From assembly GCF_009831105.1 (NCBI RefSeq), contig NZ_WUUQ01000001.1, positions 900,001 through 932,000 of the forward strand: 32,000 nt of DNA, given 5' to 3'. Shown here piece by piece: positions 1 through 24,309 of this stretch (its first letter is position 1; each line of letters opens with the position of its first letter). Both the position numbers and the translations under genes were made by a program. This DNA comes from Copranaerobaculum intestinale. Its GTDB lineage: Bacteria; Bacillota_I; Bacilli_A; Erysipelotrichales; Erysipelotrichaceae. A model generated the notes under the pieces. The model was not told the DNA's origin, did not search any database, and was given only the letters and a program-made list of their open reading frames with translations.

Positions 1-1
1 G

Positions 2-511
2 GAGACAGCTTTGAAAAAAGATAATAAAAGATTATATATGCTGATCCAGACGATCTGCGGAACCGGGATCCGTGTATCCGAGCATCGCTTTATCACGGTG
101 GAGAGCTTGAAGGAGGGGCAGGTAATGGTAAGCAATAAGGGGAAGAGTCGAATTATCTTTATCCAAAAGAAGCTGAGAAGACTCCTATTGGAATACTGTC
201 GGGAGGCGAAGATCGAACGGGGATCGATCTTTATCACGAAAAACGGAAGACCGATGGATCGCTCAAACATCTGGAGTGCGATGAAGCAGCTCTGTGAGGA
301 AGCGGGAGTTGAACGAAGGAAAGTTTTTCCGCATAATCTGCGGCACCTCTTTGCATATACCTATTATGGACTATACAAGGATGTAGTGCGGCTGGCTGAC
401 ATCTTGGGCCATTCGAGTATTGAGACGACAAGAATCTATACGATGAGCAGCGGAAAGGAATGCCAGCGGTCGTTAATGAGGATGGGCTTGGTCGATCTGA
501 TAAAAACATAA
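2..511 (+). CDS. tyrosine site-specific recombinase, C-terminal catalytic domain (5' end lies outside the window)
   Basis: The reading frame is open to the window edge. The catalytic signature is readable: GTGIRVSE (Arg), HNLRHLFA (His-x-x-Arg), LGHSSIETTRIYT (His plus the Tyr nucleophile). Confidence 0.85.
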   Translation, partial: ETALKKDNKRLYMLIQTICGTGIRVSEHRFITVESLKEGQVMVSNKGKSRIIFIQKKLRRLLLEYCREAKIERGSIFITKNGRPMDRSNIWSAMKQLCEEAGVERRKVFPHNLRHLFAYTYYGLYKDVVRLADILGHSSIETTRIYTMSSGKECQRSLMRMGLVDLIKT

Positions 512-551
512 AAAAAACGATTTGAAGGAAACGGTGAGAAAATGAGCAGCG

Positions 552-577
552 TTACCACATAATGTGTATTATGTGGT
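552..577. repeat. left inverted repeat (IR-L), TTACCACATAATGTGTATTATGTGGT; candidate recombinase core site
   Basis: Read directly from the sequence. It is the exact reverse complement of 935-960. Internally it has 10-bp palindromic arms (ACCACATAAT / ATTATGTGGT) around an asymmetric GTGT centre. Confidence 0.8.
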
Positions 578-795
578 CAAACGCCGTAAGCTTATTAAAA
601 AACCGCAATAAACGGAGGCTGATTATCGCAACTATTTGTAAATATTTAATATATGTGAGAAATGTAACCGTTTTACATGTTTTATCTTACCATGTTACTT
701 TTTCTTCAACAACGAATATTGGTAAATAACGAAATATGTTGGGGAAATCATATAAATCACATAAAATCACACAGATCATCACGCTTATGTATACG

Positions 796-816
796 AAAAA
801 AAGGCATGATCATGCC
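796..816 (-). terminator. terminator-like hairpin inside the invertible segment, currently facing leftward
   Basis: Palindrome GGCATGATCATGCC (803-816) is preceded on the plus strand by A7, so the minus strand carries hairpin plus T7. Inversion would point it at the LytTR operon. Confidence 0.35.
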
Positions 817-901
817 GCAAACAGACGATTTGTCAGAAATATACTGCCAATATAAGTAAAAAAACAAGATATCTGAAATGACATCCGATGGTGATGTTTT
901 T

Positions 902-930
902 TTGTATGTCAAAAGGATCAGGAATATGCT
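902..930 (+). promoter_or_regulatory. candidate sigma-A promoter inside the invertible segment, facing the LytTR gene
   Basis: TTGTAT (902-907), 17-nt spacer, TATGCT (925-930). A second weaker candidate is TTGTCA (830-835), 15-nt spacer, TATAAG. Both are imperfect matches. Confidence 0.25.
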
Positions 931-934
931 CGTT

Positions 935-960
935 ACCACATAATACACATTATGTGGTAA
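935..960. repeat. right inverted repeat (IR-R), ACCACATAATACACATTATGTGGTAA
   Basis: 26/26 match to the reverse complement of 552-577. The centre is ACAC rather than GTGT, so the two sites are in inverted orientation. Confidence 0.8.
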
Positions 961-986
961 GAGAGAATAAAGGGAAAGGGAATGAC

Positions 987-1796
987 ATGGACAAAAAGAG
1001 TATTGAACAATGTCTTGCGCTAAGTAAGGAAGTGATGATCCGGCACTTTCATGGGGATAATGAGTTTGCTGTATCACATATGCATAAAAACTGTATCTGG
1101 ATCGGTTCATGTGCCAGTGAATTCTATCAGGGGAAGGATACCATCGCTGCGGTCTTGCGCCAGGAAGCAGCCGATCTGCCGCAGGTAGAGCTGTCGGCCT
1201 TCGAATATATGTGTGTATCGCAGGATGTACATGACTGTACCGTAACGGGCAGACACGTCGGAAGGACACGGTTAGATTCCGGAGAGCTGTATCGGGACAT
1301 GCAGCGAGTCACATTTGTGTGGAAAAAGGAAAAGGATGAATATCGGATCATGCATATTCATGTATCAAATCCAATGAACAATTTGAAAGAGGGAGAGGTG
1401 TTTCCCCACCGAATGGGGAAGTATGCAAAGGAATATCTGAACATGCTGGTGAGCCGAGAGGTGGAAAAGAACGGAACGATCACGGTCAAGGATCAGCAGA
1501 ATCGGTTTCATATCATCCAAATCAGCGATATCTTGTATTTTGAAGCATTCAATATGAATTGTATCCTGCATCTGAAGAACGATGATGATGTATTCGGAAG
1601 GATCACGCTGCTGGAGGTGGAGAAACAGATTCAAAAAAAGAATGCTGATATGTTCAAGCGGGTACATAAGAGTTACTTAGTTAATAAGTATCATACAGCA
1701 GCTTTAAAGCGTTATGAGATAACAATGAGCAATCAAGAACAAATTCCGGTATCTCAGAAACGCTATAACGAGGTGAGAAAATGGCTCCATCAATAA
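987..1796 (+). CDS. LytTR-family DNA-binding protein with an NTF2/SnoaL-like N-terminal domain (no receiver domain)
   Basis: C-terminal LytTR pattern: ISDILYFEAF...FKRVHKSYLVNKYH...IPVSQKRYNEV. The N-terminus ends in RVTFVWKKEKDEYRIMHIHVS, typical of the NTF2-like fold. The ATG at 987 follows AAAGGGAAAGGG. The ORF-track start at 888 lies inside the IR and is unlikely. Confidence 0.8.
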   Translation: MDKKSIEQCLALSKEVMIRHFHGDNEFAVSHMHKNCIWIGSCASEFYQGKDTIAAVLRQEAADLPQVELSAFEYMCVSQDVHDCTVTGRHVGRTRLDSGELYRDMQRVTFVWKKEKDEYRIMHIHVSNPMNNLKEGEVFPHRMGKYAKEYLNMLVSREVEKNGTITVKDQQNRFHIIQISDILYFEAFNMNCILHLKNDDDVFGRITLLEVEKQIQKKNADMFKRVHKSYLVNKYHTAALKRYEITMSNQEQIPVSQKRYNEVRKWLHQ

Positions 1797-1802
1797 GGGG
1801 GG

Positions 1803-1988
1803 ATGATATTGAAGCAAGGAAGTCGATACGAAATAGGACAAAGCTATTCACATGAGGAATATCGAAACGCGGGTGTGGCTCACATAAAGCAGGGGAATGG
1901 TCGCTGTGAATATTATCATAAGGGTAAATTGATTAGTGAGGAAGCAGCGGAAGAGCTGGTAAGGAGCTATCAGAAAAAGCTGAAATAA
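1803..1988 (+). CDS. hypothetical 61-aa protein
   Basis: The ORF is packed tightly between the LytTR and EAL genes, with a G-rich RBS directly upstream (TTG at 1809 is an alternative start). I recognise no motif. Confidence 0.45.
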   Translation: MILKQGSRYEIGQSYSHEEYRNAGVAHIKQGNGRCEYYHKGKLISEEAAEELVRSYQKKLK

Positions 1989-2006
1989 AGAGAGGGGTGA
2001 TGGAAT

Positions 2007-3686
2007 GTGGAACAATCACCAAAAACCGAATTGGACGATTTGAACGAAGCGTTGATTGACGGCTGGATGATTGATCATGAACCGAAGGTACTGATCGAAA
2101 AGCTGGCTGAGACATGTACATGGATCAGTGCGGGCAGGGAGGAAATACTCACCGGGAAAAAAGCAATCATTACGTATTTGGAAGCGATGGCAGAAGAAAA
2201 GACAAAACGGCCCCTAAAGCGCGGCAGTTATACGGTGATCCTGGCAGAAGCCGGATATGGATTAGTCAGCATCGAATGCCTGCCGATGCGGTATACGATC
2301 CTTTGGGTGAAGGAAGGATCAAAATGGCAGATCAGACATCTGCATGATTCGCTGTATATATATGGAGAAACGATGCATGAACGATTGAAGATTGCGGCAA
2401 GGACAGATACGGTGACGAAGCTGCATAACCAGCAAGGGTTCTGTGATGCGGTGAGCGAGCTGATGAAAGCGCATGATAAGCGATATGCGCTGATCAAGTT
2501 TGGAATCAAGGATTTCCGCTATATCAATCAGCGATACGGCTATGCCAAGGGAGAAGCGGTTTTACAGAATATCGGAAAAAATCTGCAAAAAACATGTGAA
2601 GCAGATGAGACATGCGGACATATTGAAAAGGATATCTTTGCGATGCTGTATCGATATCACGGAAAACAGGATATGGCAAGGCGGATGGAAGAAGTGCGGC
2701 ACAAGCTGTTGGATAAGCATCTGTTGTATGAGCTGGGGATCGAGATTGATTTCATCGCAGGAATATACACGATACCGAAGGGAATGCAGGAGCATGTGAA
2801 GGATATGCTGGATAAGGCGCTGATGGCGCAGCAGCAGGTGAGCCGGCAGCAGATTGGAAGCCACTACCGATATTACGAGGAAAGCGTAATGCGGAAGCAG
2901 TATCAGCATCAGCAGCTCATACAATATGCACCGACCGCAATGAAAAAAGATGAATTCTTGTTGTATATACAGCCGCAGTTCTCGATTAGTTGTGGAAAAA
3001 TTGTAGCGGGTGAAGCGCTGTGCCGCTGGAAGAGCAGGGACGGAACATTCATCCCGCCGGATGAATTCATACCGTTATTTGAAGAATATGGACTGATCTG
3101 CGCATTTGATTTCTACATGTTAAAGAAGCTGTGTGAAAAGATGAAGGCATGGATGGAGCGGGGAAGAATCATTACCCCGATTTCGATCAATCAGTCACGG
3201 CTGCATATTGATAAGAAAGACTATATTGAACGCTTCTGTAAGGTGGTAGATCACTATGAGATACCGCATAGCTATATAGCATTTGAACTGACGGAGTCGG
3301 CGTTCGTGGAACAGTATGAGAAGATGATTCGTTTGGCAGGAGAGCTGCATCGCCAAGGGTTCCAATTAGCAATCGATGATTTCGGAACAGGCTTTGCGAG
3401 TTTGAATCTGCTGAGCGTAGTATCTGCGGATATCTTGAAGGTAGATAAAAGCCTATTGGACAGCATTCATACGAAACGGGGAAGAACTGTATTGGAGAAA
3501 GTGATCGAGCTGGCACATCAAATGGAAATGACAGTAATCTGTGAAGGAATTGAGGAGGAAACTCAGCTGAAGGAACTGAAAGAGCTGAAGTGCGACATCG
3601 GTCAGGGATATTTGATGGGAAGACCAATTCCGGCTGAAGCATTCGAGAAGCGTTGGATAGAAGGAAATGAGGAAGCAAAGGGATGA
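2007..3686 (+). CDS. c-di-GMP phosphodiesterase: NTF2-like sensor, degenerate GGDEF, EAL
   Basis: EAL-domain residues are all readable: EALCRW, SINQS, ELTES, DDFGTG, KVDKS, EGIEEE, GQGY. The GGDEF position reads GHIEKDIF, so the A-site is lost. GTG start lies 7 nt after AGAGGGGTGA. Confidence 0.85.
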   Translation: MEQSPKTELDDLNEALIDGWMIDHEPKVLIEKLAETCTWISAGREEILTGKKAIITYLEAMAEEKTKRPLKRGSYTVILAEAGYGLVSIECLPMRYTILWVKEGSKWQIRHLHDSLYIYGETMHERLKIAARTDTVTKLHNQQGFCDAVSELMKAHDKRYALIKFGIKDFRYINQRYGYAKGEAVLQNIGKNLQKTCEADETCGHIEKDIFAMLYRYHGKQDMARRMEEVRHKLLDKHLLYELGIEIDFIAGIYTIPKGMQEHVKDMLDKALMAQQQVSRQQIGSHYRYYEESVMRKQYQHQQLIQYAPTAMKKDEFLLYIQPQFSISCGKIVAGEALCRWKSRDGTFIPPDEFIPLFEEYGLICAFDFYMLKKLCEKMKAWMERGRIITPISINQSRLHIDKKDYIERFCKVVDHYEIPHSYIAFELTESAFVEQYEKMIRLAGELHRQGFQLAIDDFGTGFASLNLLSVVSADILKVDKSLLDSIHTKRGRTVLEKVIELAHQMEMTVICEGIEEETQLKELKELKCDIGQGYLMGRPIPAEAFEKRWIEGNEEAKG

Positions 3687-3841
3687 AGCTGTTTAAGCGA
3701 AAAGAGAAAAAGCAAAAGAAAGATGAGCGCTATATTGAAGTGAGAAGCGGGGAGAAAGATATACGGAAATATCCGAGAGATATGATGTTGATGGATCGGG
3801 TGAAGCGAGAAAGAAGTGAGGAGAATGAGAGCGAAAATTGA
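3683..3841 (+). CDS. possible 52-aa Lys/Glu-rich mini-ORF within a purine-rich leader
   Basis: Its ATG overlaps the TGA of the EAL gene (ATGA). It translates as MKLFKRKEKKQKKDERYIEV... and is below the ORF-track size cut-off. It could simply be non-coding leader. Confidence 0.2.
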   Translation: MKLFKRKEKKQKKDERYIEVRSGEKDIRKYPRDMMLMDRVKRERSEENESEN

Positions 3842-3906
3842 AGGGAAGAAGCTGGAATGGAATGAAGACGGATGAGAAACGGATAAAGAAGCAGAAAGAA
3901 GGAGGA

Positions 3907-6900
3907 ATGGTGTTGAAAACAATGAGAAAGAAAAGAACAGCAGGTATACTTTTGAGCGGATTTTTGATCGCGGGAATCACGCTGGGAAATCCATATGTGT
4001 ACGCGAAGGAACAGGAAATCGAAGAAACAAGCGTACAGGAACAGCAACCAGAAGCACAAGAAACAAACGAGGAGGCTGAAACAAAAGCTGCTGAAGATAA
4101 GTCTACCGCGTTACAAAGGCCTTTAAAAAGAGAGCTTGGACAGACCATGCTCAATGGTGTGACACCGATGGTGAGCGGGACATTTGGAAGCTTTCAGGTT
4201 GACGCATCTTCATCAGATATGTGGGTCGATGCCGGATCAGATGTGTTGGAGATCACGCAGCCGGGTACGATCAAGATCACCGGAGATGGTACGGGTTCTT
4301 CGAGTAATTTTACAAATGGAAGTATAAAGATCACAGCCGTTGGAACGGTCAATATCACAATTGATGGTGTCTGGCTGTCAGGAAGTGATAAAGGAATGGA
4401 TATATCCTCAGCCTGTACAGTCAATTTGACCTTGATGAATGATAATTTCTTTAGGGGAATGAACGGAGGTGTACGAGTTTCATCAGAATCCAGCTTGACG
4501 ATAGATGGAACGGGATCCCTTGGCGCAAAAGGAATGGCAGGAGGAACAGGAATCGGCGGAAATACAAGAGAAGCTAATGGCCCGATTACAATCAATAGCG
4601 GAACAATTACCTCAACTGGTATGAGGGCCGCAGGAATCGGTAGTGGTTCTCAAAGCACTGATGGAGGTAATATTACGATCAACGGCGGTAATATAAATGC
4701 CTCGGCAAATCGAGGAGGAGCAGGTATTGGCGGTAGTCCAGGCGGCAACGTAAAAAATATTACCATTAATGGCGGAACAATTGAGGCAAGTGGAGATACC
4801 GGCGCTGGTATTGGAAGTGGCTTGGGGATAGCATCCGCAAGAACAATGGTTGAAAATATTACGATCAACGGTGGTAATGTAAGTGCCTATGGCAATGAGA
4901 GTGCTGCTATAGGTGGGGGTAACTATGGAGACGTGAAAAATATTACGATTAATGGTGGAAATATTGTTGCGGATGGTTTGGCAGGGACAATAATTGGTGG
5001 TGGAAGCAATGCTTTGGTCGAGAATATTGAAATCACCGGTGGAAGTATAAAAACGAGTAGTCGTAATGACAATGACATTGCTGACATTGGTGATGGATTA
5101 AATCCTGTTGAACCAATCAAAGGGCTGTATATCAGTGGCGGATTGTTTCACCTATTAAAAGAATTAACAATTCCTGTATATAATAATCCAACTGACAAGG
5201 TTCCGGTATACGGGACAGCTTTTCCTAGTACAAATGGGACAAAAAAATTCAAAGTAGATGGACATGATTACAAAATCGAGGAAATAACGGATCCGACCGG
5301 ATACAGCTTTTTTATGACCGGAGAAGATCATCTGGTCATGACAAGAGATACGAACAGTGACCGGAATACTCCTTATAGTGCAATATGGAATCCCGACACA
5401 CAGCGATTTACCTTTTCTGCTGCTGCGGAAGCAGGTGATTTTGTAGTTGTTGGCGGTGTATCAGGAACAAATTATCAATTTGACGAATCACAAGGATTTC
5501 TTGAAATCTTAACGTCTGGTGATTATCGAATTTATAGTGTTGTTGATGAAACAAGCGATGCTATCTTTATATCCAATTCAAATTTAGCTGCTGACGTGAA
5601 TTTAACCATTGTTGATTTGAATATCAATGGTTATCTATCGGGAATTACGTTAAGAAATAAATTAACCAAATTAACCCTGATAGGAGAAAATACAATTATT
5701 GCCCAAGGTACAATCTCAGCGGCATTTACGGTCGAGGAAAAAGCAAAATTGGAAATTATGGGTGATGGTTCGCTTACTTGTTCAGCGGCTGGAGAAGCGG
5801 GTATCGGCGGCGCGAAAGGAAATATGAACGGAGAGATTACGATCCAAAGCGGAACAATCACGGCAAGCGGTGTAACAGGAGCCGGAATCGGCGGAAGCAG
5901 GGGCCCTAGTGGACGCATCACCATCAATGGCGGAACGGTTCATGCAATCAGTGAAAGCGGTGCCGGAATCGGGGGAGCCAGCGGTAAAATGGGCGGAGGT
6001 ATTACGATCAATGGCGGCAATGTCATCGCAGAAAGTACCTCTGGTGCTGGAATTGGTGCCGGCGAAGGTACATATGCAAAAAATGTAGTCGTTAATGGTG
6101 GAACCGTAACCGCAATCAGTTCAACCGGTGATGGCATCGGATCCGGAGCCAATGATCCAGCTCCTTTAAATAATACCATTGAGATTGGTTATGCTTCTGT
6201 TCTGGCCAAGGGGGTAAATCCAATTTCAGGGAAACAAGTAATTACTACTGAGGGTCGTAGCGGCGCTATGTATGAAATCAAGAACCATAATGGTGCGGCC
6301 CCGATCAAAGTAGATGATGTAGAATATACGATGGATGGCAATCATCCAAACGGAGATACCAGCTACTACTTATATATGGAAGCCACTGTACCCCACACGA
6401 TTACCGTCGGAACGGATAGCTTTGAAATCGCTTGGTATGATGGAATTTTCAAATTGAAACCGCCACAGGTGGATAGTGCTCAGGTGGTTGAAACAACGAC
6501 CTCGTCGATCAGTGTTACAGCTACTCCGCAGCCTAAATACGGGGATGTGGAATATTGTATGACAGGAACAGGTTGGGTGTTTACCAAGGATACGACTTTT
6601 GAAAACCTTAAGGCGGGAGAAAAATATTCAATCATGGTACGCTATGCGGGCAATGATGAATATGGTACATCTGAAGAAGTCTTTCTAAACACAGAAACAA
6701 AGCCGGCCATCTATACCATTTCGATCCCAACGGAAATGACGGCGGATGGCACATCGCAGAATATTGCCGTCGATACGGCTGAGGATTTTGCTTTGGGATA
6801 TCAAGGCAAGGTGAATGTAAAAGTCACCGGAGGAATCAACAGTGATGGTTTAATGCCGCTCACAAGAACGAGCGGTACAGAAAAGCCTACGATTACATCT

Positions 6901-7068
6901 CAATTAAACGTATTAAATACACCGTTCAAAAATTTGAGCGCGAATGTAGCGACCTTCCAAACAAAGAATGATCCGGCTGTACCGATCTCTTTCGCAAAGC
7001 CAACCGGAAACATTCCGGCCGGATCGTATCGCGGCACGGCAGTGTTTACGATCAGCTATACCCAATAA
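3907..7068 (+). CDS. large secreted parallel-beta-helix repeat surface protein with Fn3-like and small-subunit-like C-terminal domains
   Basis: Signal peptide MRKKRTAGILLSGFLIAGITLGNPYVYA/KE. Two blocks of ITINGG-x-I-x-A-x(3-5)-GAGIGG repeats. The last ~130 aa align with the three small proteins at 7603-9048. The start is ambiguous (ATG 3907, TTG 3913 or ATG 3922, after GGAGG at 3901). Confidence 0.85.
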   Translation: MVLKTMRKKRTAGILLSGFLIAGITLGNPYVYAKEQEIEETSVQEQQPEAQETNEEAETKAAEDKSTALQRPLKRELGQTMLNGVTPMVSGTFGSFQVDASSSDMWVDAGSDVLEITQPGTIKITGDGTGSSSNFTNGSIKITAVGTVNITIDGVWLSGSDKGMDISSACTVNLTLMNDNFFRGMNGGVRVSSESSLTIDGTGSLGAKGMAGGTGIGGNTREANGPITINSGTITSTGMRAAGIGSGSQSTDGGNITINGGNINASANRGGAGIGGSPGGNVKNITINGGTIEASGDTGAGIGSGLGIASARTMVENITINGGNVSAYGNESAAIGGGNYGDVKNITINGGNIVADGLAGTIIGGGSNALVENIEITGGSIKTSSRNDNDIADIGDGLNPVEPIKGLYISGGLFHLLKELTIPVYNNPTDKVPVYGTAFPSTNGTKKFKVDGHDYKIEEITDPTGYSFFMTGEDHLVMTRDTNSDRNTPYSAIWNPDTQRFTFSAAAEAGDFVVVGGVSGTNYQFDESQGFLEILTSGDYRIYSVVDETSDAIFISNSNLAADVNLTIVDLNINGYLSGITLRNKLTKLTLIGENTIIAQGTISAAFTVEEKAKLEIMGDGSLTCSAAGEAGIGGAKGNMNGEITIQSGTITASGVTGAGIGGSRGPSGRITINGGTVHAISESGAGIGGASGKMGGGITINGGNVIAESTSGAGIGAGEGTYAKNVVVNGGTVTAISSTGDGIGSGANDPAPLNNTIEIGYASVLAKGVNPISGKQVITTEGRSGAMYEIKNHNGAAPIKVDDVEYTMDGNHPNGDTSYYLYMEATVPHTITVGTDSFEIAWYDGIFKLKPPQVDSAQVVETTTSSISVTATPQPKYGDVEYCMTGTGWVFTKDTTFENLKAGEKYSIMVRYAGNDEYGTSEEVFLNTETKPAIYTISIPTEMTADGTSQNIAVDTAEDFALGYQGKVNVKVTGGINSDGLMPLTRTSGTEKPTITSQLNVLNTPFKNLSANVATFQTKNDPAVPISFAKPTGNIPAGSYRGTAVFTISYTQ
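4498..5060 (+). repeat. in-frame degenerate tandem repeats, block 1 (about 8 units of roughly 20-28 aa)
   Basis: The DNA motif AATATTACGAT(C/T)AA(C/T)GG(C/T)GG recurs near 4672, 4755, 4857 and 4940. The protein motif is NITINGGNI...GAGIGG. Confidence 0.75.
5750..6155 (+). repeat. in-frame degenerate tandem repeats, block 2 (about 5 units)
   Basis: ITIQSGTITASGVTGAGIGG, ITINGGTVHAISESGAGIGG, ITINGGNVIAESTSGAGIGA, VVVNGGTVTAISSTGDGIGS. Confidence 0.75.
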
Positions 7069-7083
7069 GGAGCAAATAGAACG

Positions 7084-7584
7084 ATGAAGAATAAGAAAAC
7101 GATCAGTATTGTGCTGTTGATGGCGGTACTGCTGGCAGGGGGCATCACGATCGGAATGAACTGGGATAGCTGGTTTGGTAAAGACGATCCCAAAGATAGC
7201 TTAGCAGTTGATGATCAGGCGGAGGATTGGACCGGTAATAAAGAAACCTATACAGGTAAAAAGAATACAGATACGATTGATATTCCCGGATATGGAGCAA
7301 TCGATCTGCAAGCGGATACGGTCAAGCAAGCAGTGAATCTTTATAATCCGGAACAGAATAATTGTTATTTCAAAATGTCGCTGCTGCTGGAGGACGGAAC
7401 GAAGCTGTGGGAATCACAGCTGATCGCGCCGGGCAAAGCAGTATACAAGATCACGCTGAATCAAGCATTAAAAGCGGGTGAATATAAAGATGCGACCTTA
7501 AAATATGAATGTTTCAAAATGAATGAAGAGCGGACGCCGCTGAACGGCTCAGAGATTAAACTGAACCTGAATGTTAGAAAGTAA
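7084..7584 (+). CDS. N-terminally membrane-anchored extracytoplasmic protein, function unknown
   Basis: There is a single N-terminal hydrophobic helix (ISIVLLMAVLLAGGITIGM) with no clear AXA cleavage site. The remainder is beta-rich. It starts 15 nt after the upstream gene. Confidence 0.7.
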   Translation: MKNKKTISIVLLMAVLLAGGITIGMNWDSWFGKDDPKDSLAVDDQAEDWTGNKETYTGKKNTDTIDIPGYGAIDLQADTVKQAVNLYNPEQNNCYFKMSLLLEDGTKLWESQLIAPGKAVYKITLNQALKAGEYKDATLKYECFKMNEERTPLNGSEIKLNLNVRK

Positions 7585-7602
7585 AAGAAAGAGGGAAAAA
7601 AC

Positions 7603-8064
7603 ATGAAAAAATTAGCAACAGGTATCGTAAGTGCAGGACTGCTGACAATGATGATTTTGCCGATCCAGGCAAATGATACAGCCGTGAGCTATTCTCAGTC
7701 ATCATCGTATGTACTGAGCATACCGGATACCATTGAATTGAACAGCGCGTCAAGCAAGAGCTTGGCGATCGGGGTACAGAACGTGAATACGACTCCGGAG
7801 CAGAAGGTACAGGTGAAAGCAAGCGGGCTTACGAATGGAAAGGTGACGCTGACCAGAGCGAGCAAGGGAGATACGATTCAGGTTACAGTAAGCAAGACCG
7901 ATGGTGGATCAGGAATTTCTGACACAGATGTATTGGCAGAGTTTCAGGATCAGTCAACGACCGCAGTAAGCGGAGGTACGATTTGGTTTGCCGCAGTAGG
8001 CGATGTGCCAGCTGGAACATACAGCGGAACGATCACGTTTACGGGATCCTATGCGAATCGATAA
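7603..8064 (+). CDS. small secreted subunit-like protein, paralog 1 (WxL-like C-terminal motif, no W-x-L)
   Basis: Signal peptide ending IQA/ND. Conserved blocks: YVLSIP, KVQVKASG, NGKVTLTR, AEFQDQSTTA, AGTYSGTITFTGSY. Confidence 0.8.
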   Translation: MKKLATGIVSAGLLTMMILPIQANDTAVSYSQSSSYVLSIPDTIELNSASSKSLAIGVQNVNTTPEQKVQVKASGLTNGKVTLTRASKGDTIQVTVSKTDGGSGISDTDVLAEFQDQSTTAVSGGTIWFAAVGDVPAGTYSGTITFTGSYANR

Positions 8065-8078
8065 GGAGGAAGAAAAAA

Positions 8079-8561
8079 ATGAAAAAGATCACAAAGTGCA
8101 TGCTTGGGGCATTGATGACAGGAGCGATGCTGACACCGGTACATGCAGAGGAAGCAACAACAAGCATTCAATACAGTAAGACATCAGAATATACGCTGAG
8201 CATTGATAGCTCAGTAACGGTAAGCAGTACCACCGAGACTGAGCAGGCAATCAAAGTATCGAACGTCAATACGAAAAGCAATGAAAAGGTACAGATTGCG
8301 ATAAAGAGCGGTGTCGGTAGCAACGGAAAAGTAACCTTGACCCGTGATGACGCAAGCGGAGTGACGACTGAGGTGACAGCCAGTCTGGATAAAAATGGAG
8401 CAGGCATTGGTGCAAATGAAGTAATCGCGGAATTTGAGGATCAATCAACCACAGCCACCAAAGGCGGAAAGCTGTATTATTCAAAAATCCCCGCAGATGC
8501 TGCCGCGGGAAGCTATACAGGAACGATTGTGTATGTCGGATCTGTAGTAGCCCGCAATTAG
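8079..8561 (+). CDS. small secreted subunit-like protein, paralog 2
   Basis: The ATG at 8079 follows AAGGAGGAAG. Signal peptide ends VHA/EE. It shares YTLSI, NGKVTLTR, AEFEDQSTTA and AGSYTGTIVYVGS with paralog 1. The ORF-track start at 7983 overlaps the previous gene. Confidence 0.8.
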   Translation: MKKITKCMLGALMTGAMLTPVHAEEATTSIQYSKTSEYTLSIDSSVTVSSTTETEQAIKVSNVNTKSNEKVQIAIKSGVGSNGKVTLTRDDASGVTTEVTASLDKNGAGIGANEVIAEFEDQSTTATKGGKLYYSKIPADAAAGSYTGTIVYVGSVVARN

Positions 8562-8571
8562 GAGCAGATAT

Positions 8572-9048
8572 ATGAAGCATAAGAAGCTCCTGTTGGCAGG
8601 AATGGCAATGATGCTTGGATGGCTGCCGCTGCGGGTACAGGCAGCGGATGATCAGGAAGGAACGATCACCCTAAAGGCAACGGTTCCGGCAAGCTATGAG
8701 CTGTCGATTCCGATCACGAGCACAAACATTGATTATGATCAGCAGACACAGCAGATCGGAAAGCTGAGTGTGCAGGGAAATATCGAAGCCGGAAAGACAA
8801 TTACGGTATCGGTAAAAGAGAAAAAGGATTTTAAGGCGTCAACGAATCCGCAGGAAGTACCGGGAATCCCCTTCAAGGTAACAAAGGCAGGAAGTGAATT
8901 CTCAAATGAGGTATGGACATCGGATGAGATCAAGGCCGCAGTACCAAAAGAGATCACACTGTCGATCGAGTTCGAAGCGGATGCATGGTCGATGGCCAGC
9001 AGCGGAGAGTATATCGGATCAGTAGTGTTCTCAGCAGCTATGAACTAA
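8572..9048 (+). CDS. small secreted subunit-like protein, divergent paralog 3
   Basis: Signal peptide ending VQA/AD. It has YELSIP near the mature N-terminus and SGEYIGSVVFSAAMN at the C-terminus. Confidence 0.75.
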   Translation: MKHKKLLLAGMAMMLGWLPLRVQAADDQEGTITLKATVPASYELSIPITSTNIDYDQQTQQIGKLSVQGNIEAGKTITVSVKEKKDFKASTNPQEVPGIPFKVTKAGSEFSNEVWTSDEIKAAVPKEITLSIEFEADAWSMASSGEYIGSVVFSAAMN

Positions 9049-9079
9049 AGAAGATGAATGCGGAAGGAGGTGCTGAGGA

Positions 9080-9994
9080 TTGCGAAAAGGAAGAAGCATA
9101 GTATGGCTGGCGGTGATCGGCTTGCTGTTGTCGCAGATGACACCGGTACAGGCTGAGGAAGTCGGCGGCGGTGAAACAACAATCCATATCGAAGTGCCAA
9201 AGCAGCACAAAATGCGGCTGAAGATCGGAACCCATGGGTCGGTGAAGGTCGCAGGGAAGAGCTATCAAGGAGATCAGCAGATCACGGTAAAGCGACTCAC
9301 AAGACCGCAATTTGAGATTAAGGCGGACAAAGGATACACGATCAAACGTGTGAGCTTCGGAGGAAAGAATGTATTAAATGAGATCAAGGGTAATGTTTAT
9401 ACCGCACCGCTTATCCATGAAGATGATATTCAGTTGGAGATAAGCTTTCAAAAAGGAAGCAGCAGTGCCGAGGAGAGCCAGCCCGGAGAAACTGAGAAGC
9501 CAGTGAAACCGGGCGGTGGAAACGAATCATCCGGATCGAATGAACCGGCGAAGGATGCAGACTCTGATGAAAATGCGGAGGAAGGATCGATTAACAAAGG
9601 GGATCAATCAAAGCCGGAAACGGGAAAAGAAGATATTCTGGATGAATTGGATAAGATCGACGATCTGTTAACAAAAGGGGAGCTTACACCGGCAGAGCGA
9701 GAAGAACTGCAGGAAAAGCAGACACAGCTGATCGAAGAATTGACCAAACAGCTGATAAAAGGAAATCCAAAGGATAAGCAAGCAATCGAGGATGACTTAA
9801 AACAGATCGAGAAATTGTTGTCACGAAAGGATCTGAGCAAGAAACAGCGAAATGCTTTAAAGCAGCGTCAGGCAGCGCTGCGTAAACAGCTGGATGCCGC
9901 AAAGGATACCGGAAATCATGAAGTGATCATCCTGATCATTTTAGGGGTTACAGTGCTTGGCGGTGCTGTGTATTTCTTTATTAAGAAAAAATAA
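9080..9994 (+). CDS. secreted, C-terminally tail-anchored protein: Ig/InlB-B-repeat-like domain, acidic linker, coiled coil, TM helix
   Basis: TTG start after GGAAGGAGG. Signal peptide ends VQA/EE. HGSVKVAGKSY...KADKGYTIKRVSFGGKNV resembles divergent InlB B-repeats. The E/K-rich heptad-like stretch is followed by VIILIILGVTVLGGAVYFFIKKK. Confidence 0.75.
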   Translation: MRKGRSIVWLAVIGLLLSQMTPVQAEEVGGGETTIHIEVPKQHKMRLKIGTHGSVKVAGKSYQGDQQITVKRLTRPQFEIKADKGYTIKRVSFGGKNVLNEIKGNVYTAPLIHEDDIQLEISFQKGSSSAEESQPGETEKPVKPGGGNESSGSNEPAKDADSDENAEEGSINKGDQSKPETGKEDILDELDKIDDLLTKGELTPAEREELQEKQTQLIEELTKQLIKGNPKDKQAIEDDLKQIEKLLSRKDLSKKQRNALKQRQAALRKQLDAAKDTGNHEVIILIILGVTVLGGAVYFFIKKK

Positions 9995-10042
9995 AAAAAT
10001 TAAATATTGAACTCTTTTATCTTAAAAACAAGAGTGTTGAAG

Positions 10043-10092
10043 GTGTGTAAATTAGATAAATGTACAGTATTTAATTTACGCACTTTTGTTTC
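10043..10092 (+). terminator. probable intrinsic terminator ending the 987-9994 operon
   Basis: GTGTGTAAATTA pairs with TAATTTACGCAC (12 bp including one G-U, 17-nt loop), followed by TTTTGTTTC. The stem is AT-rich and therefore weak. Confidence 0.45.
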
Positions 10093-10243
10093 TGATCATT
10101 CCCTTTTACCGAATCATTGTAAAAAATGCTTATCTTTATCTAAGATAAACAAAGAAAGTAATCGGAAATAAAGAATTAAACATCATAAGACAGCATTATT
10201 ATGTTTGCAAGAGGATGAGTTGATGTTGTAAAAGGAGGAACAA

Positions 10244-13200
10244 TTGTCTATGAATAAAAAGCTAAGAAGAATAGGCATTTTGTTATTTGTATGTGCAATG
10301 TGTTTTGGGATGATACATTCTGTTCAGGCAAGTAATGATAACATGGATGATATCTCCGTTGCTTTTCATCATGAAATCAGCGAGGATAAGCGGACGGTAA
10401 ACATAAAGGTAGAGACAGCGAGCACAGAAGGATTCATTATCGATGCGGTAGCGTTCGAGGGTAATTCACGGATTAATGCAGATAAAGCTGAATTTATCGT
10501 AAGTGAAAACGGGGATTATGATATAACTGTTTATTATCATTCCCTTACTGATAAAGACGCATCGGATTTATCAAAGACGGTTGTCGATCATGTGAGCGAG
10601 CTGCCGGAAAATGTATCGCAAAACAATGGTGATAACAAAGAAATTCACCGGAGTGCTGCGAAATCTGACACGTTACCATCAAATAGAAGTACATCATTAC
10701 AGCCTACCACCTTTGATGAATTGAATGCGGCAATCACAAATGCATCTGATAATGATATCATTGATTTGTCAAGCTTAACAAGTGATGGGAAGAATCATAC
10801 ATTGAATATCACAAAGAATCTTGTGTTAGCCGGATCAGGTAATACTATTGAGGGAATCTATATTGAGATTGATCCTAACCAGACCTGTACACTGCGTAAT
10901 ATTGTGATAAAAGGCTCCTACATTGCGAGCGATTCAAAAAAAATGACAGTAGCCGGACAGGATGCAAATTTAATTGTAGAGGGTGATGCAACCTTGATTG
11001 GAAGCTCAGAAGATCGAAAAATGAGCTACATGTCAGGTCTGGCGGTTTCTGGCTTGAAAAATGTAACGATCTATGGAACAGTTCAGAGCGGAAACGGCAG
11101 TAAAAAAATAGAAAGAGGAGCGATTGAAGGTTGTTATAGAGTTGTTGTAGACGGCGGAAAGATCATAGGGTCCACCGTGGTAGCCGGTAAAGATGACCAC
11201 GGGGCAGCCAACAATCCCTTACTTTTTGCCATAAACTATCTGGAGCTAAAAAATGCAAGCATCATTGGCTGTAAGGATAGTTATGAAAATTCATCTGGGG
11301 GAAGTTTGATTGATTATGCTTATCAAGTATCGATTACAAATAGTCATCTGCAGCCCGCAGATGTCAAGTTACCCTTTACATTAGTGAGTGTATCTAATAA
11401 TACACTGGGACATACCTATGCCCGTGACAGTGCGCTATCGCTGGATATTAAAGGAACCAATCTGATTCAGGCTGACAGCAATCGGTCGACGGGGAATACC
11501 GATAGTTCGGATTACGGCAACGGAAGCAGCTACACATTTGCCAGTGCAATTAAGTTTGATATGTCACAGAATCAAATTGATGCTTATGACAATGTGTCAC
11601 CGACAATTAACATCGGTGCAGATGTTACGATTCAAGGCGGAAATACAACCGTTGGAAATGCTTCATCAGCAATCATTTGTTGGTCCAATAAGGTACCGGT
11701 GATTATTAATATGCAGAAGGGTTCCAAGGTGATCGGCGGCAGCACTACTGATACATCTGCTGATACCTATGGCGGAAATGGAATTACCGGCGCACAAGTA
11801 AATACGGATGGAGCTTTGGTACAAGGCGGTAAGGGTACTTATGGCGGATACGCTATTTCACGGTGCTGGTCTGATTCAACGTTTGCCGGTGATAGTCAAA
11901 TTATCGGCGGTGAAGGATATAAAGTCGGAGGCCACGCTGTTTATAACGCTTCTAAGATTACCGTTGATAATGCGGTGATCACCGGAGGAAAAGCACCGGC
12001 GTTTGCGGATGAAACGCAGCATGCCGGATCCGCGGTAAATAGGGTGAATACGCTTGTTTTAAATGACGGTATCCTCAGTCCCGGTGAAGGCGGATATGCT
12101 ACATGCTATATAACCAATCTATATATGCGTGGAGGAGCCATTTATAACAGCGGCGGACATATTGAACCGCATACAGATGATCCCAATAAGCCAGCTGTTC
12201 ATTTATATAATTCACCAACGGTACAGATCAGCGGCGGTCAGATTGGTTATATGAATTATGGAACAACAAAATATTTGGCTATTTGGGGATCAAGCACTAC
12301 CCATTGGTCTTATCGAAAAGAAGATCGAAAAGTACAATGGCAAGATTCTATTTATTCAGGCAGTGGTTATACGCTCTATGCGGATGAAGTAATCAGTGAC
12401 GGCGTCAATATTACGGATACTACAGATATTAAAAAAGCAAATAATATTTATAGTCAATTCAGTATGGAAAACAAAACTGAATCAGGAAACGTGTTGATTT
12501 ATGGAACCGATACGGTCACGGTTACCTTTCCCCGGGCGATCACAGAGGATGATCTTGTAATTATCTCAGCCCGTAACTGGGATAAGCGTGATGCCCCGTA
12601 CGAAGCGTTAGAAATCCCGGTTACCTTGGTAAATGGCGGCAGTGACGGCAAGATCGAGTTTAAACAGCCGGCTCGTTCGATTCGAGTTGAGCTGCGAAAA
12701 AAGAGTGCTGTTGCTGATGATAAAGACAATAAAATTGTTGATTTAGATATTAATAAGCAGTACATAGTAAATGAAATGATCACTTTTAAAGCTGTGGGTG
12801 TAAATATGGATGAAGCGAATCCTGGATTGAATGATATCCGCTATAAGCCTGTGGCTTGGAGTGTAAATCCAAACGGAACATGGGAAAACGCTCCATACAC
12901 AGCATCCTTTCAACTTACAAAACCGGGTATTTATACACTAAAGGTTGCCTTCGCAAAAGAACAATATTTGTCACAGGATAAATGGATCAAGACTGATGAG
13001 ACGGTACAGAAGGAAGTTAAGATTGAAGTCAAGGAAGCAGACAGCGAAAAAGAAGATGATAAGGATACACCGAAAGAAGATGAGGATACACCGAAAAAAG
13101 ACACGGATAATTCAGATAAAGAAAGCAATGCTTCGGCAGAAACATCAGATTCAACGAATAAAAATCTCTGGCTTTTGTTTCTGCTTACAAGCTTTGGCAC

Positions 13201-13258
13201 AATTATCTTGCTGATCCTGAAAAAGTGTAAGAGTTATTCGAAGAATATGCTTGGTTAA
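10244..13258 (+). CDS. second large secreted beta-helix (pectate-lyase-fold-like) surface protein with an acidic stalk and C-terminal TM anchor
   Basis: Signal peptide ending VQA/SN. TFDELNAAITNASDNDIIDLS...LNITKNLVLAGSGNTIEG is typical of the start of right-handed beta-helix adhesins. There are many GG-rich turns. The C-terminus has a D/E/K-rich stalk and then LWLLFLLTSFGTIILLILKK. Start is TTG 10244 or ATG 10250, after GGAGG. Confidence 0.8.
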   Translation: MSMNKKLRRIGILLFVCAMCFGMIHSVQASNDNMDDISVAFHHEISEDKRTVNIKVETASTEGFIIDAVAFEGNSRINADKAEFIVSENGDYDITVYYHSLTDKDASDLSKTVVDHVSELPENVSQNNGDNKEIHRSAAKSDTLPSNRSTSLQPTTFDELNAAITNASDNDIIDLSSLTSDGKNHTLNITKNLVLAGSGNTIEGIYIEIDPNQTCTLRNIVIKGSYIASDSKKMTVAGQDANLIVEGDATLIGSSEDRKMSYMSGLAVSGLKNVTIYGTVQSGNGSKKIERGAIEGCYRVVVDGGKIIGSTVVAGKDDHGAANNPLLFAINYLELKNASIIGCKDSYENSSGGSLIDYAYQVSITNSHLQPADVKLPFTLVSVSNNTLGHTYARDSALSLDIKGTNLIQADSNRSTGNTDSSDYGNGSSYTFASAIKFDMSQNQIDAYDNVSPTINIGADVTIQGGNTTVGNASSAIICWSNKVPVIINMQKGSKVIGGSTTDTSADTYGGNGITGAQVNTDGALVQGGKGTYGGYAISRCWSDSTFAGDSQIIGGEGYKVGGHAVYNASKITVDNAVITGGKAPAFADETQHAGSAVNRVNTLVLNDGILSPGEGGYATCYITNLYMRGGAIYNSGGHIEPHTDDPNKPAVHLYNSPTVQISGGQIGYMNYGTTKYLAIWGSSTTHWSYRKEDRKVQWQDSIYSGSGYTLYADEVISDGVNITDTTDIKKANNIYSQFSMENKTESGNVLIYGTDTVTVTFPRAITEDDLVIISARNWDKRDAPYEALEIPVTLVNGGSDGKIEFKQPARSIRVELRKKSAVADDKDNKIVDLDINKQYIVNEMITFKAVGVNMDEANPGLNDIRYKPVAWSVNPNGTWENAPYTASFQLTKPGIYTLKVAFAKEQYLSQDKWIKTDETVQKEVKIEVKEADSEKEDDKDTPKEDEDTPKKDTDNSDKESNASAETSDSTNKNLWLLFLLTSFGTIILLILKKCKSYSKNMLG

Positions 13259-13308
13259 GACAGGAAAAATAAATCAGACAAAAAGGCATTGAGAAGGATA
13301 GATTCTTT

Positions 13309-13347
13309 AAGTACTCCGTTATTTTACTGGCGGAGTACTTACTTTTT
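13309..13347 (+). terminator. intrinsic terminator
   Basis: AAGTACTCCG, 12-nt loop, CGGAGTACTT, then ACTTTTT. Confidence 0.8.
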
Positions 13348-13779
13348 AAGAGCGGTAATTTATGTGAAAGTGAATTTCACAGGAAAGCTATATGCTTTAT
13401 TTCTCTGACTGAACGATCTTGGATAGTCTGCTAAAAACAAGATTTTTAATAATTGATTAGAATCTTTCATAAGCTTTATGAGGATGAATCTGTTAACGCA
13501 GTAATCGTGATAGAATGTTTGATATTTAGTTAGAAAAGCAATTATCATACATATTAGTATTTACGATACACATGGTAATTGGCAATGGATAAATATTATC
13601 ATTTACCATACCTTTTTTGTAAATAAAAAGTGGTTCTAATGAAAGATCACTTCTGTTGTATTCAACGTTTTCTTTTATACCGTTGTCTACTTCAGTGTGA
13701 TCAGATCAAAGGGTTACCACTTTTTTTATTACATTATTTATAAGCATTAGAAACTATTACATAACAGGTAATAGGTGAT

Positions 13780-14364
13780 TTATTCCGTTAATCCAAATGA
13801 TTTGGGATAGGTTTTTAGGTGCAACATGTTACCGATTTCCATTGCCCATTCGCGATAGCCATAGGCAACGGAAGTAAGGATATGATCACTGCGGATGAAT
13901 TTTAAAGTATCATACTCTTTTATACAATCATTCCAATCCATCATCAATTCCATTTCATCCATGGTGATGCCTTCTTCCAGCAAACCTTCTTTCGGACATG
14001 CGCACATAAAATGTCTGTCTTTTAATACGCCAGCTTTGATCAGCATGATCGGTCCGGCAGATATGGCCGCCAATACCTTTTTCTTTGCATCGAACTGGCG
14101 TATGATCGATTGTAATAATGGGTTGTCGGCCAGCGGAAAGTGTTCATTTTGAAATCCCGTGAGCAGCAGGGCATCATATTCATCGACGCAGAGTTCTTCT
14201 AAAGAGCGCTCTGCCTGACAAAGCAATCCCTCTTCACTTCGATAAAGCTGTTTATGTTCACCGAAGACGGTGATCGGAACGTTTTCCATGGCAAACATTT
14301 CTAAGGCGATACAAAATTCAAAATTACAGAAATTATCATAAATCAAAACAGCTATTTTCATCAT
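13780..14364 (-). CDS. DJ-1/PfpI-family protein (class I glutamine-amidotransferase-like fold)
   Basis: KIAVLIYDNF...DALLLTGF...KVLAAISAGPIMLIKAGVL. The nucleophile-elbow position reads Ser instead of the usual Cys. There are three candidate starts (TTG 14367, ATG 14364, ATG 14361) after GAGGAGG. Confidence 0.7.
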   Translation of the reverse strand: MMKIAVLIYDNFCNFEFCIALEMFAMENVPITVFGEHKQLYRSEEGLLCQAERSLEELCVDEYDALLLTGFQNEHFPLADNPLLQSIIRQFDAKKKVLAAISAGPIMLIKAGVLKDRHFMCACPKEGLLEEGITMDEMELMMDWNDCIKEYDTLKFIRSDHILTSVAYGYREWAMEIGNMLHLKTYPKSFGLTE

Positions 14365-21644: not shown

Positions 21645-21671
21645 TAAAAAAACATACAGCGAGCTGTATGT
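21645..21671 (-). terminator. intrinsic terminator after apbE
   Basis: ACATACAGC / GCTGTATGT stem with a T-run on the minus strand. It overlaps the stop codon. Confidence 0.7.
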
Positions 21672-22780: not shown

Positions 22781-22925
22781 AGCTTCACCGGGGGTATTAT
22801 ACCACATTTTTAAATGATTTACGCATTTCATGAAGTTTGTGAAACCGATAAGAAAGAGCGAAAGAATGCAGGGAATTGGTAAATTGTGAAATTTATAATT
22901 AAAGCTTTTTATAGATTGGTGAAAA

Positions 22926-22934
22926 TGCTATAAT
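22926..22934 (+). promoter_or_regulatory. extended -10 element (TGCTATAAT) upstream of rnfC
   Basis: TGnTATAAT lies 56 nt before the rnfC ATG. An AACTGT / ACAGTT hairpin follows in the leader (22946-22966). Confidence 0.4.
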
Positions 22935-24297: not shown

Positions 24298-24309
24298 GGA
24301 GGAGACAGA

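Follow-up and report, generated by a model that had tools for sequence, protein, structure and literature searches.

A putative promoter-inversion switch in front of a LytTR regulator, a c-di-GMP phosphodiesterase and a candidate fibre operon in Copranaerobaculum intestinale

A recombinase gene, a pair of inverted repeats and a string of genes on one strand follow each other at the start of a 32,000-nucleotide stretch of the Copranaerobaculum intestinale genome (Erysipelotrichaceae; contig NZ_WUUQ01000001.1, positions 900,001 to 932,000 of the forward strand), hereafter termed the window, to which all coordinates without a contig label refer. This arrangement raises the question of whether inversion of one short DNA segment decides over the expression of everything behind it, namely a LytTR-type transcription regulator, a phosphodiesterase (PDE) of cyclic di-GMP (c-di-GMP) and a set of secreted proteins that may build a surface fibre. 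A sequence-only reading of the locus had proposed an inverton-gated, self-contained module of this kind, and the recombinase, the repeat pair and the same-strand gene string were all recovered as it had placed them. The analysis presented here indicates that the locus is probably a promoter-inversion phase switch of the fimS type, which gates the regulator, the PDE and the fibre operon. As judged from its promoter, the window displays the switch in the OFF orientation, a point on which the earlier reading was silent.

The recombinase and the invertible segment

The recombinase gene is cut by the start of the window, which holds its 3' part (11..511, plus strand); the encoded tyrosine recombinase is Xer-like (Pfam Phage_integrase, 1.8e-24) and comprises 303 aa at full length, as read from contig L001. 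A motif check located all of the residues R...HxxR...H...Y, so that the enzyme is catalytically complete by sequence. For the full-length protein the best matches among family models were XerA (score 130, cut-off 220), XerD (104, cut-off 330) and XerC (103, cut-off 335), none of which passed, and the models of FimB/FimE-type invertases matched weakly (PRK09871, 27.6 bits with a cut-off of 222; PRK09870, 25.8 with a cut-off of 221). By these scores the recombinase is Xer-like, and is neither an Xer orthologue nor a member of the FimB/FimE family.

The gene ends 40 nt ahead of the left one of two recombination sites. The arms of the inverted repeat (IR; 552-577 and 935-960) are complementary at 26 of 26 positions and have 357 nt in between. 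The left site (552..579; TTACCACATAA-TGTGTA-TTATGTGGTCA) has an 11-6-11 layout and forms a perfect IR arm, a palindrome with an asymmetric centre, and the right site (933..960; TTACCACATAA-TACACA-TTATGTGGTAA) carries its centre inverted relative to the left one. Both are complete, with 28 bp made up of 11-bp arms and a 6-bp centre as in the sites of Xer resolvases, and the centre is their sole asymmetry. Since the two centres point in opposite directions, recombination between the sites inverts the segment. The core pattern CATAATN4ATTATG occurs twice in the 32 kb, both times at the IR arms, with a chance expectation of 0.21, and the same site architecture is found in about 12 related lineages. 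In their layout (11-6-11) and in the motif ATAA/TTATGT of the inner arms, the sites appear to resemble dif of Escherichia coli. The segment itself (578..934; 357 nt from IR arm to IR arm, assembled in the OFF orientation) encodes no protein, and the right site (IR-R) is separated from the ATG of the LytTR gene by 26 nt. The adjacent Xer-like recombinase would act on the two dif-like 28-bp sites and thereby invert this 357-bp segment; the left junction predicted after a flip, that is the left site followed by the inverted right end of the segment, reads ATTATGTGGTAACGAGCATATTCC.

The minus strand of the segment carries a conserved promoter (684..747). Two repeats, TTTCCCCAA (747-739) and TTTACCAAT (726-718), lie 21 bp apart and precede a core composed of a -35 element TTGTTG (712-707), a 17-nt spacer and an extended -10 element TGGTAAGAT (692-684). 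When the minus strand of the segment was taken from eight related lineages and the alignment was anchored on the extended -10, it proved gapless in seven of them, with a spacer that is fixed at 17 nt in length and variable in sequence. Across species the repeats follow TT(T/C)(C/A)CCAA.AT with a 21-bp period, the -35 is TTGTTG or TTGATT, and the -10 is TGnTAAGAT. A position weight matrix (PWM) trained without the window scored 69.5 bits at 748-684 of the minus strand, compared with -8.5 for the next site in the 32 kb and 2.1 for the best shuffled sequence. Judged by this alignment and these scores, the block bears the conservation signature of a working promoter, and it reads outward from the segment. 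Two direct repeats with a period of about 21 bp in front of a weak -35 make up the architecture of LytTR boxes; the repeats upstream of the -35 appear to share it and are thus putative regulator sites. Just downstream of the -10 lies a 15-mer, TGTAAAACGGTTACA (663..677, minus strand), which is identical in seven sequences (the window, L002, L008, L009, L010, L050 and L069) between flanks that diverge, and which surpasses the -35 in conservation. Possible functions are those of an operator or a 5' RNA hairpin.

Terminator-like elements are present on both strands of the segment. On the plus strand, a hairpin followed by seven T residues (881..903) is located just before IR-R and faces the LytTR gene as assembled; its position is conserved, and the hairpin is stronger in L010 (-10.4 kcal/mol, z -3.7) and L050 (-10.8 kcal/mol). 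On the minus strand, a second hairpin, GGCATGATCATGCC, again with seven T residues (796..816), is located upstream of the repeats and has counterparts in L009 and L050. With a hairpin and T-run on each strand, one terminator-like element meets read-through from the recombinase gene in either orientation, so that the flipped internal promoter alone can drive the operon. In the window the promoter points at the recombinase gene, away from the operon, and a hairpin faces the LytTR gene, so that the operon is read as OFF. Any transcription from the promoter in this state would run antisense to the 3' end of the recombinase gene, with the hairpin and its U-run standing before LytTR. After inversion, transcripts would begin with a leader of about 100 nt, cross the right site and then cover the genes for the LytTR regulator, a 61-aa protein, the PDE and the fibre components as one unit that ends at about 10090, while the second hairpin and U-run would keep transcription of the recombinase gene from running on into the operon. 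Binding of the LytTR protein to the repeats is probable and would create a positive feedback that sharpens the ON state. The inverton proposed from the sequence alone is supported in its anatomy by complete sites with opposed centres, an adjacent recombinase, an internal conserved promoter and terminator-like hairpins, together with the ON-type junctions that are found in relatives and described below.

The operon, its regulators and its relatives

Behind IR-R, nine plus-strand genes extend from 987 to 9994 with intergenic gaps of 6-31 nt, except for 220 nt between the PDE gene and the gene of a beta-helix protein. The unit is closed by an intrinsic terminator (10039..10095, plus strand; -20.2 kcal/mol, z -5.3, followed by UUUUGUUU), in agreement with the position of about 10043 given to it before. 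A strong terminator is found only there, after the last gene, and nothing terminator-like follows the PDE gene. The 220-nt gap is purine-rich and contains an open reading frame (ORF) for a Lys/Glu-rich peptide of 52 aa (3683-3841), which has an ATGA overlap with the PDE stop; since the gap shrinks to 54 nt in L050 and to 108 nt in L010, this ORF is probably not a gene. Of the earlier description the tight spacing stands, and the ATGA overlap belongs to this ORF.

The first gene (987..1796, plus strand) encodes a one-component regulator of 269 aa, in which Pfam recognizes an N-terminal SnoaL_3 domain (8.4e-5) and a C-terminal LytTR domain (3e-16), and for which 33 homologous proteins were found. 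It is 100% identical to a protein of 'Clostridiaceae bacterium DONG20-135' / C. intestinale, which to judge by the organism names of the relatives is a gut bacterium of the Erysipelotrichales. Pfam returned no Response_reg/receiver domain in this protein and the operon contains no kinase gene, which places the regulator outside the AgrA-type response regulators. The second gene (1803..1988, plus strand) encodes a soluble protein of 61 aa with the motif YTHEEYRxAGVAHL...EFYYKGKxIS, aligned across five lineages; a protein of about 60 aa (60-71 aa) stands directly after the LytTR gene in most lineages, and is absent from L010 and L068. The HdrRM/BrsRM LytTR regulatory systems are defined by a co-transcribed membrane-bound inhibitor, from which the 61-aa protein differs in that no hydrophobic segment was found in it.

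The third gene (2007..3686, plus strand) encodes a protein composed of a SnoaL-like domain, a degenerate GGDEF domain and an EAL domain (Pfam, EAL 7.1e-63, GGDEF 2.8e-18). The motifs of the EAL domain were all located (EAL, N, ExxE, DDFGTG, K, EGIE and QGY), and the GGDEF domain is devoid of GG(D/E)EF, the corresponding stretch reading GHIEKDIF, so that a PDE without cyclase activity is expected. This confirms the degenerate GGDEF and the EAL assigned to the protein earlier, and it is predicted to be an active c-di-GMP PDE. By lowering c-di-GMP it would re-tune other c-di-GMP-dependent surface functions while the fibre is made. An Rfam scan of 1-14000 matched no family, and hence no c-di-GMP riboswitch in the leaders. 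The N-terminal domains of the LytTR regulator and of the EAL protein are homologous to each other (E 8e-6), so that one ligand may address both outputs. Their relatedness suggests that a single ligand reaches the transcription factor and the PDE alike, and this NTF2-like domain would add a ligand input to the switch.

The LytTR homologues were followed into their contigs, together with one genome per species. In the Erysipelotrichales relatives, whose LytTR proteins are 42-76% identical, the LytTR gene is always the first after the pair of sites. The switch block, that is the sites and the SnoaL-LytTR gene, mostly with the adjacent recombinase and the protein of about 60 aa, recurs in about 12 Erysipelotrichales lineages, with a cargo that varies and an EAL phosphodiesterase that is optional. 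The full gene order of the window is found in the P0002 species (L050-54). In the L010/L062 species both sites are present and the operon is complete but for the small protein, and an upstream 6-phosphogluconate-dehydrogenase-like gene replaces the recombinase (L010:9500-9570, L062:1300-3000). A half-site next to a scaffold gap in this species is nevertheless a hybrid of the ON type, so that its sites are probably served in trans by a recombinase gene located elsewhere.

Other relatives connect the switch with other cargos. Erysipelotrichaceae sp. 66202529 has two switch modules about 70 kb apart. One of them (L002) carries a PDE, two SipW-type signal peptidases (105 and 93 bits, compared with 51.85), small secreted proteins and a 2582-aa protein; the other (L046:8737-18621; CP046174.1) is paralogous to it and has no PDE and a different cargo with a SipW-type signal peptidase (82 bits). 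The small secreted proteins of L002 were tried as Pfam camelysin without a match and are called SipW-associated only. Metagenome contigs that carry the L046 LytTR gene are nearly all shorter than 5 kb. In L055 the cargo consists of a giant fn3-containing protein alone (more than 3800 aa), and in L068 the beta-helix gene directly follows the LytTR gene. Conversely, Marvinbryantia formatexigens and Faecalicatena have a fibre cassette of the same gene order, with a large variable adhesin, the 166-aa protein p166, two small subunits and an anchor, and there it adjoins a MalT/LuxR-type regulator or a receiver-LytTR protein with a kinase and no inverton is present. Judged by this synteny, the window locus is made up of two separable modules, the switch and the fibre cassette. 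The self-contained single module of the sequence-only reading does not survive this comparison, as the two occur apart, and the joint occurrence of recombinase, repeats, LytTR, EAL and surface genes that it had looked to in relatives is seen in part: two species keep the full order, one of which lacks the small protein and the adjacent recombinase, and PDE and cargo vary.

At about 30% identity, more distant SnoaL-LytTR proteins are encoded without a recombinase gene in the vicinity. Several of them, from Anaerotignum, a Lachnospiraceae metagenome-assembled genome (MAG), Candidatus Avoscillospira and unclassified Clostridia MAGs (L012, L015, L016, L017, L024 and L038), stand directly upstream of genes (1-7 kb downstream of the LytTR match) that look like those of the sheath and tube of contractile injection systems, as judged from N-terminal sequences. 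Closer to the window, an identical LytTR protein is found in differing upstream neighbourhoods, with murein-synthesis genes on the one hand and ParA/ParB/helix-turn-helix genes on the other (L002 vs L003/L005, upstream 0-8.5 kb), and Tn916-type xis/int genes are located near the module in another species (L052:4100-6650). The switch module or its surroundings may be mobile.

The existence of two modules bears on how far the effect of an inversion would reach. In a cascade, inversion would control the LytTR regulator, the 61-aa protein and the PDE only, and the fibre genes would use a promoter of their own at 3687-3906, possibly activated by LytTR. The fibre cassette that stands alone under other regulators in Lachnospiraceae and the switch modules with other cargos argue for such an arrangement, as does the 220-nt gap, which is the longest in the gene string and could hold a second promoter. 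However, the same gap is reduced to a quarter or a half of this length in the two relatives named above, the PDE gene is not followed by a terminator-like site, and the window contains no second copy of the repeat-promoter motif. A cascade is an unlikely alternative to a promoter-inversion switch that drives all nine genes.

Past the strong terminator, the gene at 10244-13258 encodes a second predicted surface protein of 1004 aa, with a signal peptide and a C-terminal transmembrane (TM) helix, in which neither a Pfam match nor a pilin-like domain was found. It forms a unit of its own, is preceded by TTGTAA-N18-TAAGAT and is not kept beside the operon in L010. The gene was considered as a member of the LytTR regulon on account of its upstream sequence, TTTACCGAAT..TTGTAA..N18..TAAGAT, and was rejected, as the full PWM gives no significant second site.

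Orientation and flipping of the segment

Recombinant junctions are found in two relatives. In the isolate MGYG-HGUT-00132 (L009) the right site's outer half and the left site's inner half are combined exactly in a third site, GCACCACATAAT-ACGG-ATTATGTTGTAA. This third site has 471 nt of the inverted LytTR 5' end on one side and the left end of the segment on the other, and so forms the ON junction. The stretch concerned (L009:8680-10420) contains three sites, of which the hybrid is the middle one, an inverted duplication of about 471 nt of the LytTR 5' end and one N (8984), and it looks chimeric, as if put together from ON and OFF molecules; other assemblies of the same species (L060/L061) have the normal two-site OFF arrangement. 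The L010 scaffold has an N10 gap, and its contig on the right side of this gap starts with CTACAACATAAT-GTGT-ATTATGTGGTAG, again the outer half of the right site followed by the inner half of the left site, and the genuine left site of this species, CCACCAC..., is seen in L062, L065 and L066. Furthermore, the Logan contigs L063 and L067, which stem from different runs, both have their first base exactly where the right junctions of the two orientations, OFF and ON, become different. The sequence common to the two sites measures only 18 nt in this comparison, which is shorter than the k-mer of the Logan assembly, so that the repeat itself should not break the assembly. Hybrids and contig ends fit mixed populations with an OFF majority. 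Two further breaks were set aside: the L047 contig starts inside the right site, 17 nt off the predicted divergence point, and the scaffold gap of L001, located 40 nt ahead of the left site, gives no information. From these junctions, flipping is well supported for the family and is predicted for the C. intestinale strain.

Several observations weigh against this interpretation. All contigs, about 35 from about 12 lineages, show the segment in the OFF orientation, among them L001, the only other contig of C. intestinale. In JGI metagenomes, a scan with the commonest relative's flipped junction returned 0 matches and an orientation-neutral scan returned one contig, which is OFF, in a collection that contains too little of these species for a flipped-junction scan; an ON assembly, sought via the contigs and genomes that encode LytTR, p166 and homologues, was not found among them. 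Both hybrid junctions come from gapped scaffolds, with the N in L009 and the N10 in L010, and might in part be assembly artefacts. As for the promoter, a generic sigma-70 scan found 22 promoters where 22.3 were expected, that is no excess, so that the call is made on conservation. The hairpin at 881-903 is weak in the window (-7.2 kcal/mol, z -0.9), and the putative binding of LytTR to the repeats is deduced from the repeat architecture.

These points could mean that the switch is a relic or locked, with no or negligible inversion in this strain and an operon that is silent or driven by another signal. All assemblies have the same orientation and an ON contig is missing from them, and in the metagenome strain L045 (4300-4790) the left centre, TGAGTA, does not match the right one, TGCGTA in reverse complement, a mismatch that would hinder strand exchange and could lock the switch. 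In the window, by contrast, the sites are perfect and their centres exactly complementary, and the recombinase keeps all catalytic residues; two relatives have hybrid junctions of the ON type. Moreover, consensus assemblies show the majority orientation, and an OFF bias is expected for a costly surface structure. A locked switch appears improbable. Least credible of all, and very improbable, is that the dif-like sites belong to an Xer-dependent integrative element (IMEX-like) or serve as a resolution site, with a recombinase for mobility: the sites do resemble dif, the recombinase is Xer-like, and the neighbourhoods vary among strains of one species, with ParA/ParB-like genes once and Tn916-type int/xis once, but the centres are inverted and not direct, which leads to inversion and not to excision, the segment is non-coding and yet holds a conserved promoter and terminators, and the hybrid sites seen are those predicted for inversion. 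The promoter-inversion switch remains the probable reading of the locus.

The fibre cassette and the nearest known systems

The last six genes of the operon would form the cargo of this switch. The secreted beta-helix protein of 1053 aa (3907..7068, plus strand) contains Beta_helix_3 repeats (Pfam) and a pilin-like C-terminal domain (residues ~929-1052). Its last ~125 residues align with three small paralogues encoded further downstream and match the profile of these paralogues at 6.6e-22, which makes the protein a candidate tip adhesin. The paralogues (7603-8064, 8079-8561 and 8572-9048, plus strand) are secreted pilin-like subunits of ~150 aa with ordinary Sec signal peptides, 21-42% identical to one another. 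With an AF2 model built from 21 sequences (predicted local distance difference test, pLDDT, 88.9), the leading Foldseek matches in the PDB were almost all chaperone-usher pilins or adhesin relatives (CsuA/B, SafA, FimA, PapE, Caf1 and the FimH pilin domain), and these matches are consistent but weak (best E 1.7e-3 with TM-scores of 0.45-0.57; overall E 1.7e-3 to 1e-1 and TM-score 0.3-0.57), a point that tells against the fibre assignment. A sequence relative of the subunits is missing from the PDB, and Pfam and NCBIfam contain no model for them, with DUF4402 as the only, sub-threshold match (0.004); WxL, TasA/camelysin, SCPU and sortase-pilin families were considered and gave no Pfam/NCBIfam match. 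The subunit family comprises 2465 cluster representatives at E<=1e-3 and includes proteins of ~500-1900 aa that carry the domain at their extreme C-terminus. The surface-fibre gene set postulated earlier is supported in so far as the small proteins resemble fibre subunits in their predicted fold.

Between the beta-helix protein and the subunits is encoded p166 (7084..7584, plus strand), which has an N-terminal TM helix and an Ig-like sandwich. At least 235 homologues were found, with 58-73% identity among the matches listed. The AF2 model of p166 (pLDDT 77) gave mixed Foldseek matches, including the PapD-like chaperones FimC, FaeE and Caf1M. Such matches are generic for Ig-like sandwiches, for which reason the assignment as a PapD-like chaperone was not adopted and stays hypothetical; p166 is a conserved part of the cassette and a candidate assembly factor. 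Homologues of p166 (P0078, P0142, P0150 and P0172) are labelled 'tRNA (uracil-5-)-methyltransferase' in NCBI/UniRef, which looks like a propagated mis-annotation and is implausible for a TM-anchored Ig-like protein.

The cassette ends with an anchor protein of 304 aa (9080..9994, plus strand), which is composed of a signal peptide, an Ig-like N-terminal domain, an acidic linker, a coiled coil and a C-terminal TM helix. Its C-terminus consists of AAKDTGN, the TM helix and KKK, and scores 18.2 with TIGR01167, the model of the LPXTG anchor (cut-off 15.9), the motif being degenerate. Anchor homologues close the cassette in L050, L010 and L058, and those of Lachnospiraceae end with AAKTGDET or GVKTGDET (xxKTGDE), a TM helix and a basic tail. 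A sorting signal is absent from the C-termini of the beta-helix protein and the three subunits, and family searches of the window ORFs returned no sortase. The term 'sortase-independent', applied to the gene set before, is therefore apt for the subunits and doubtful for the anchor, which matches the LPXTG model and has xxKTGDE homologues. Among the genes in 1-13258 no usher or PapD model was matched, and family searches of the window returned no SipW-type signal peptidase.

The fibre may be made up of the anchor, the pilin-like subunits and a tip adhesin that is joined via its own pilin-like domain, as in FimH. Sec would export the cargo, the membrane protein p166 would help in the assembly, and the membrane or wall anchor, the three pilin-like paralogues and the beta-helix tip would build the fibre. 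Firmicutes have no outer membrane. More speculatively, the cassette might represent an unrecognised class of Firmicutes pili, with subunits similar to those of chaperone-usher pili, plug-in tip adhesins, p166 in place of both chaperone and usher, an LPXTG-like base anchor and a sortase-free donor-strand exchange, and with the switch as a portable cassette on several fibre or adhesin operons. We regard this as a possibility to be held tentatively. The surroundings of the locus, including ApbE followed by an RnfC/D/G/E/A-type operon (21671-27191) and DJ-1, glyoxalase, AraC-type and PGI genes at 13.7-18.9 kb, are ordinary chromosomal context.

The principle of the switch is well known, and it is this version of it and its fibre that appear to be undescribed, the fibre cassette being the part that is most likely truly new. 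Its wiring is distinctive in that dif-like sites go with an Xer-like recombinase, the LytTR promoter on the invertible DNA is probably self-activating, and twin outputs have an NTF2-like sensor; in the literature, no paper was found that joins invertons or phase variation with LytTR or Erysipelotrichaceae. The locus would extend phase variation by promoter inversion to the Erysipelotrichales, an order that GTDB places in its Bacilli group. In a survey of a defined community, the median number of invertons was 0 among genomes of the primarily Bacillus-like group that GTDB calls 'Firmicutes' (PMC11892184). An invertible promoter with putative sites for the regulator that it switches on would stack DNA orientation and positive feedback. 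The pilus-like cassette is widespread and unannotated in gut Firmicutes and may build adhesive fibres in a new manner, with neither sortase nor usher, and the orientation of the switch would be a marker from which adhesion states of common commensals of the human gut could be read in metagenomes.

Fibres can be built without an usher, as TasA fibres assemble by donor-strand exchange (PMC9674648). The window shares with such fibres (Bacillus subtilis TasA/SipW, archaeal threads and bundling pili) the small secreted paralogues, predicted to be beta-sandwiches, in one operon and the presumed absence of an outer membrane, and the sister modules L002 and L046 carry SipW-type signal peptidases as the TasA/SipW system does. 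By contrast, the window has no SipW, and the fold matches of its subunits are to chaperone-usher pilins and not to TasA. From sortase pili it is distinguished by subunits without LPXTG signals and by the lack of a sortase in the window searches, the 304-aa anchor alone passing TIGR01167. The promoter resembles autoregulated LytTR promoters (AgrA P2/P3, ComE, PlnC/D), which likewise have repeats with a period of ~21 bp at a weak -35 and precede the operon of their own regulator. However, the window regulator has neither a receiver domain nor a kinase or peptide partner, the repeat TT(T/C)(C/A)CCAA is no known box, and the whole promoter is located on invertible DNA.

Clostridioides difficile has a separate switch for every target, and these are served in trans by one recombinase encoded elsewhere. 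The RecV switches of this organism (pdcB, pdcC, cmrRST, flgB and cwpV) are similar to the window in that an inverton lies upstream of PDE genes or of a signalling operon in a gut Firmicute, and those of pdcB, pdcC and cmrRST are described as invertible elements whose phase variation leads to ON/OFF heterogeneity in surface behaviour (PMC9286219, PMC6837544). In the window, by contrast, one switch would cover regulator, PDE and fibre and has a dedicated adjacent recombinase, with the L010 species as an exception; furthermore, it has no c-di-GMP riboswitch, and its regulator is a one-component SnoaL-LytTR protein and not a response regulator.

The closest analogue is the fim locus of Klebsiella pneumoniae, in which FimB and FimE invert fimS ahead of fimAICDFGH-fimK, and FimK, a DNA-binding protein with an EAL phosphodiesterase domain, is thought to cross-regulate another fimbria via c-di-GMP (PMC9487511). 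In both loci recombinase genes stand by a short invertible promoter, one flip would serve a fibre, a regulator and a c-di-GMP sink, and the predicted fold of the window subunits resembles, by weak matches, that of chaperone-usher pilins. The combination put forward as undescribed by the sequence-only reading was thus overstated at the level of its logic, in which Klebsiella fimS-fimK and C. difficile pdcB/cmrRST precede it. The two fibre loci nevertheless differ in most of their parts: the recombinase is Xer-like in the window and of the FimB/FimE type in Klebsiella, the sites are 28-bp dif-like palindromes compared with IRs of 9 bp at fimS, regulator and PDE are separate proteins that come first in the operon and have a common NTF2-like sensor domain, and the promoter carries LytTR-box-like repeats. 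In addition, the host of the window belongs to the Bacillota and is presumed to be monoderm, and an usher or a two-domain PapD chaperone was not found in the genes searched. By its sequence features the locus stands outside the FimB/FimE, Xer-orthologue, AgrA-type, chaperone-usher, sortase-pilus and TasA/SipW groups.

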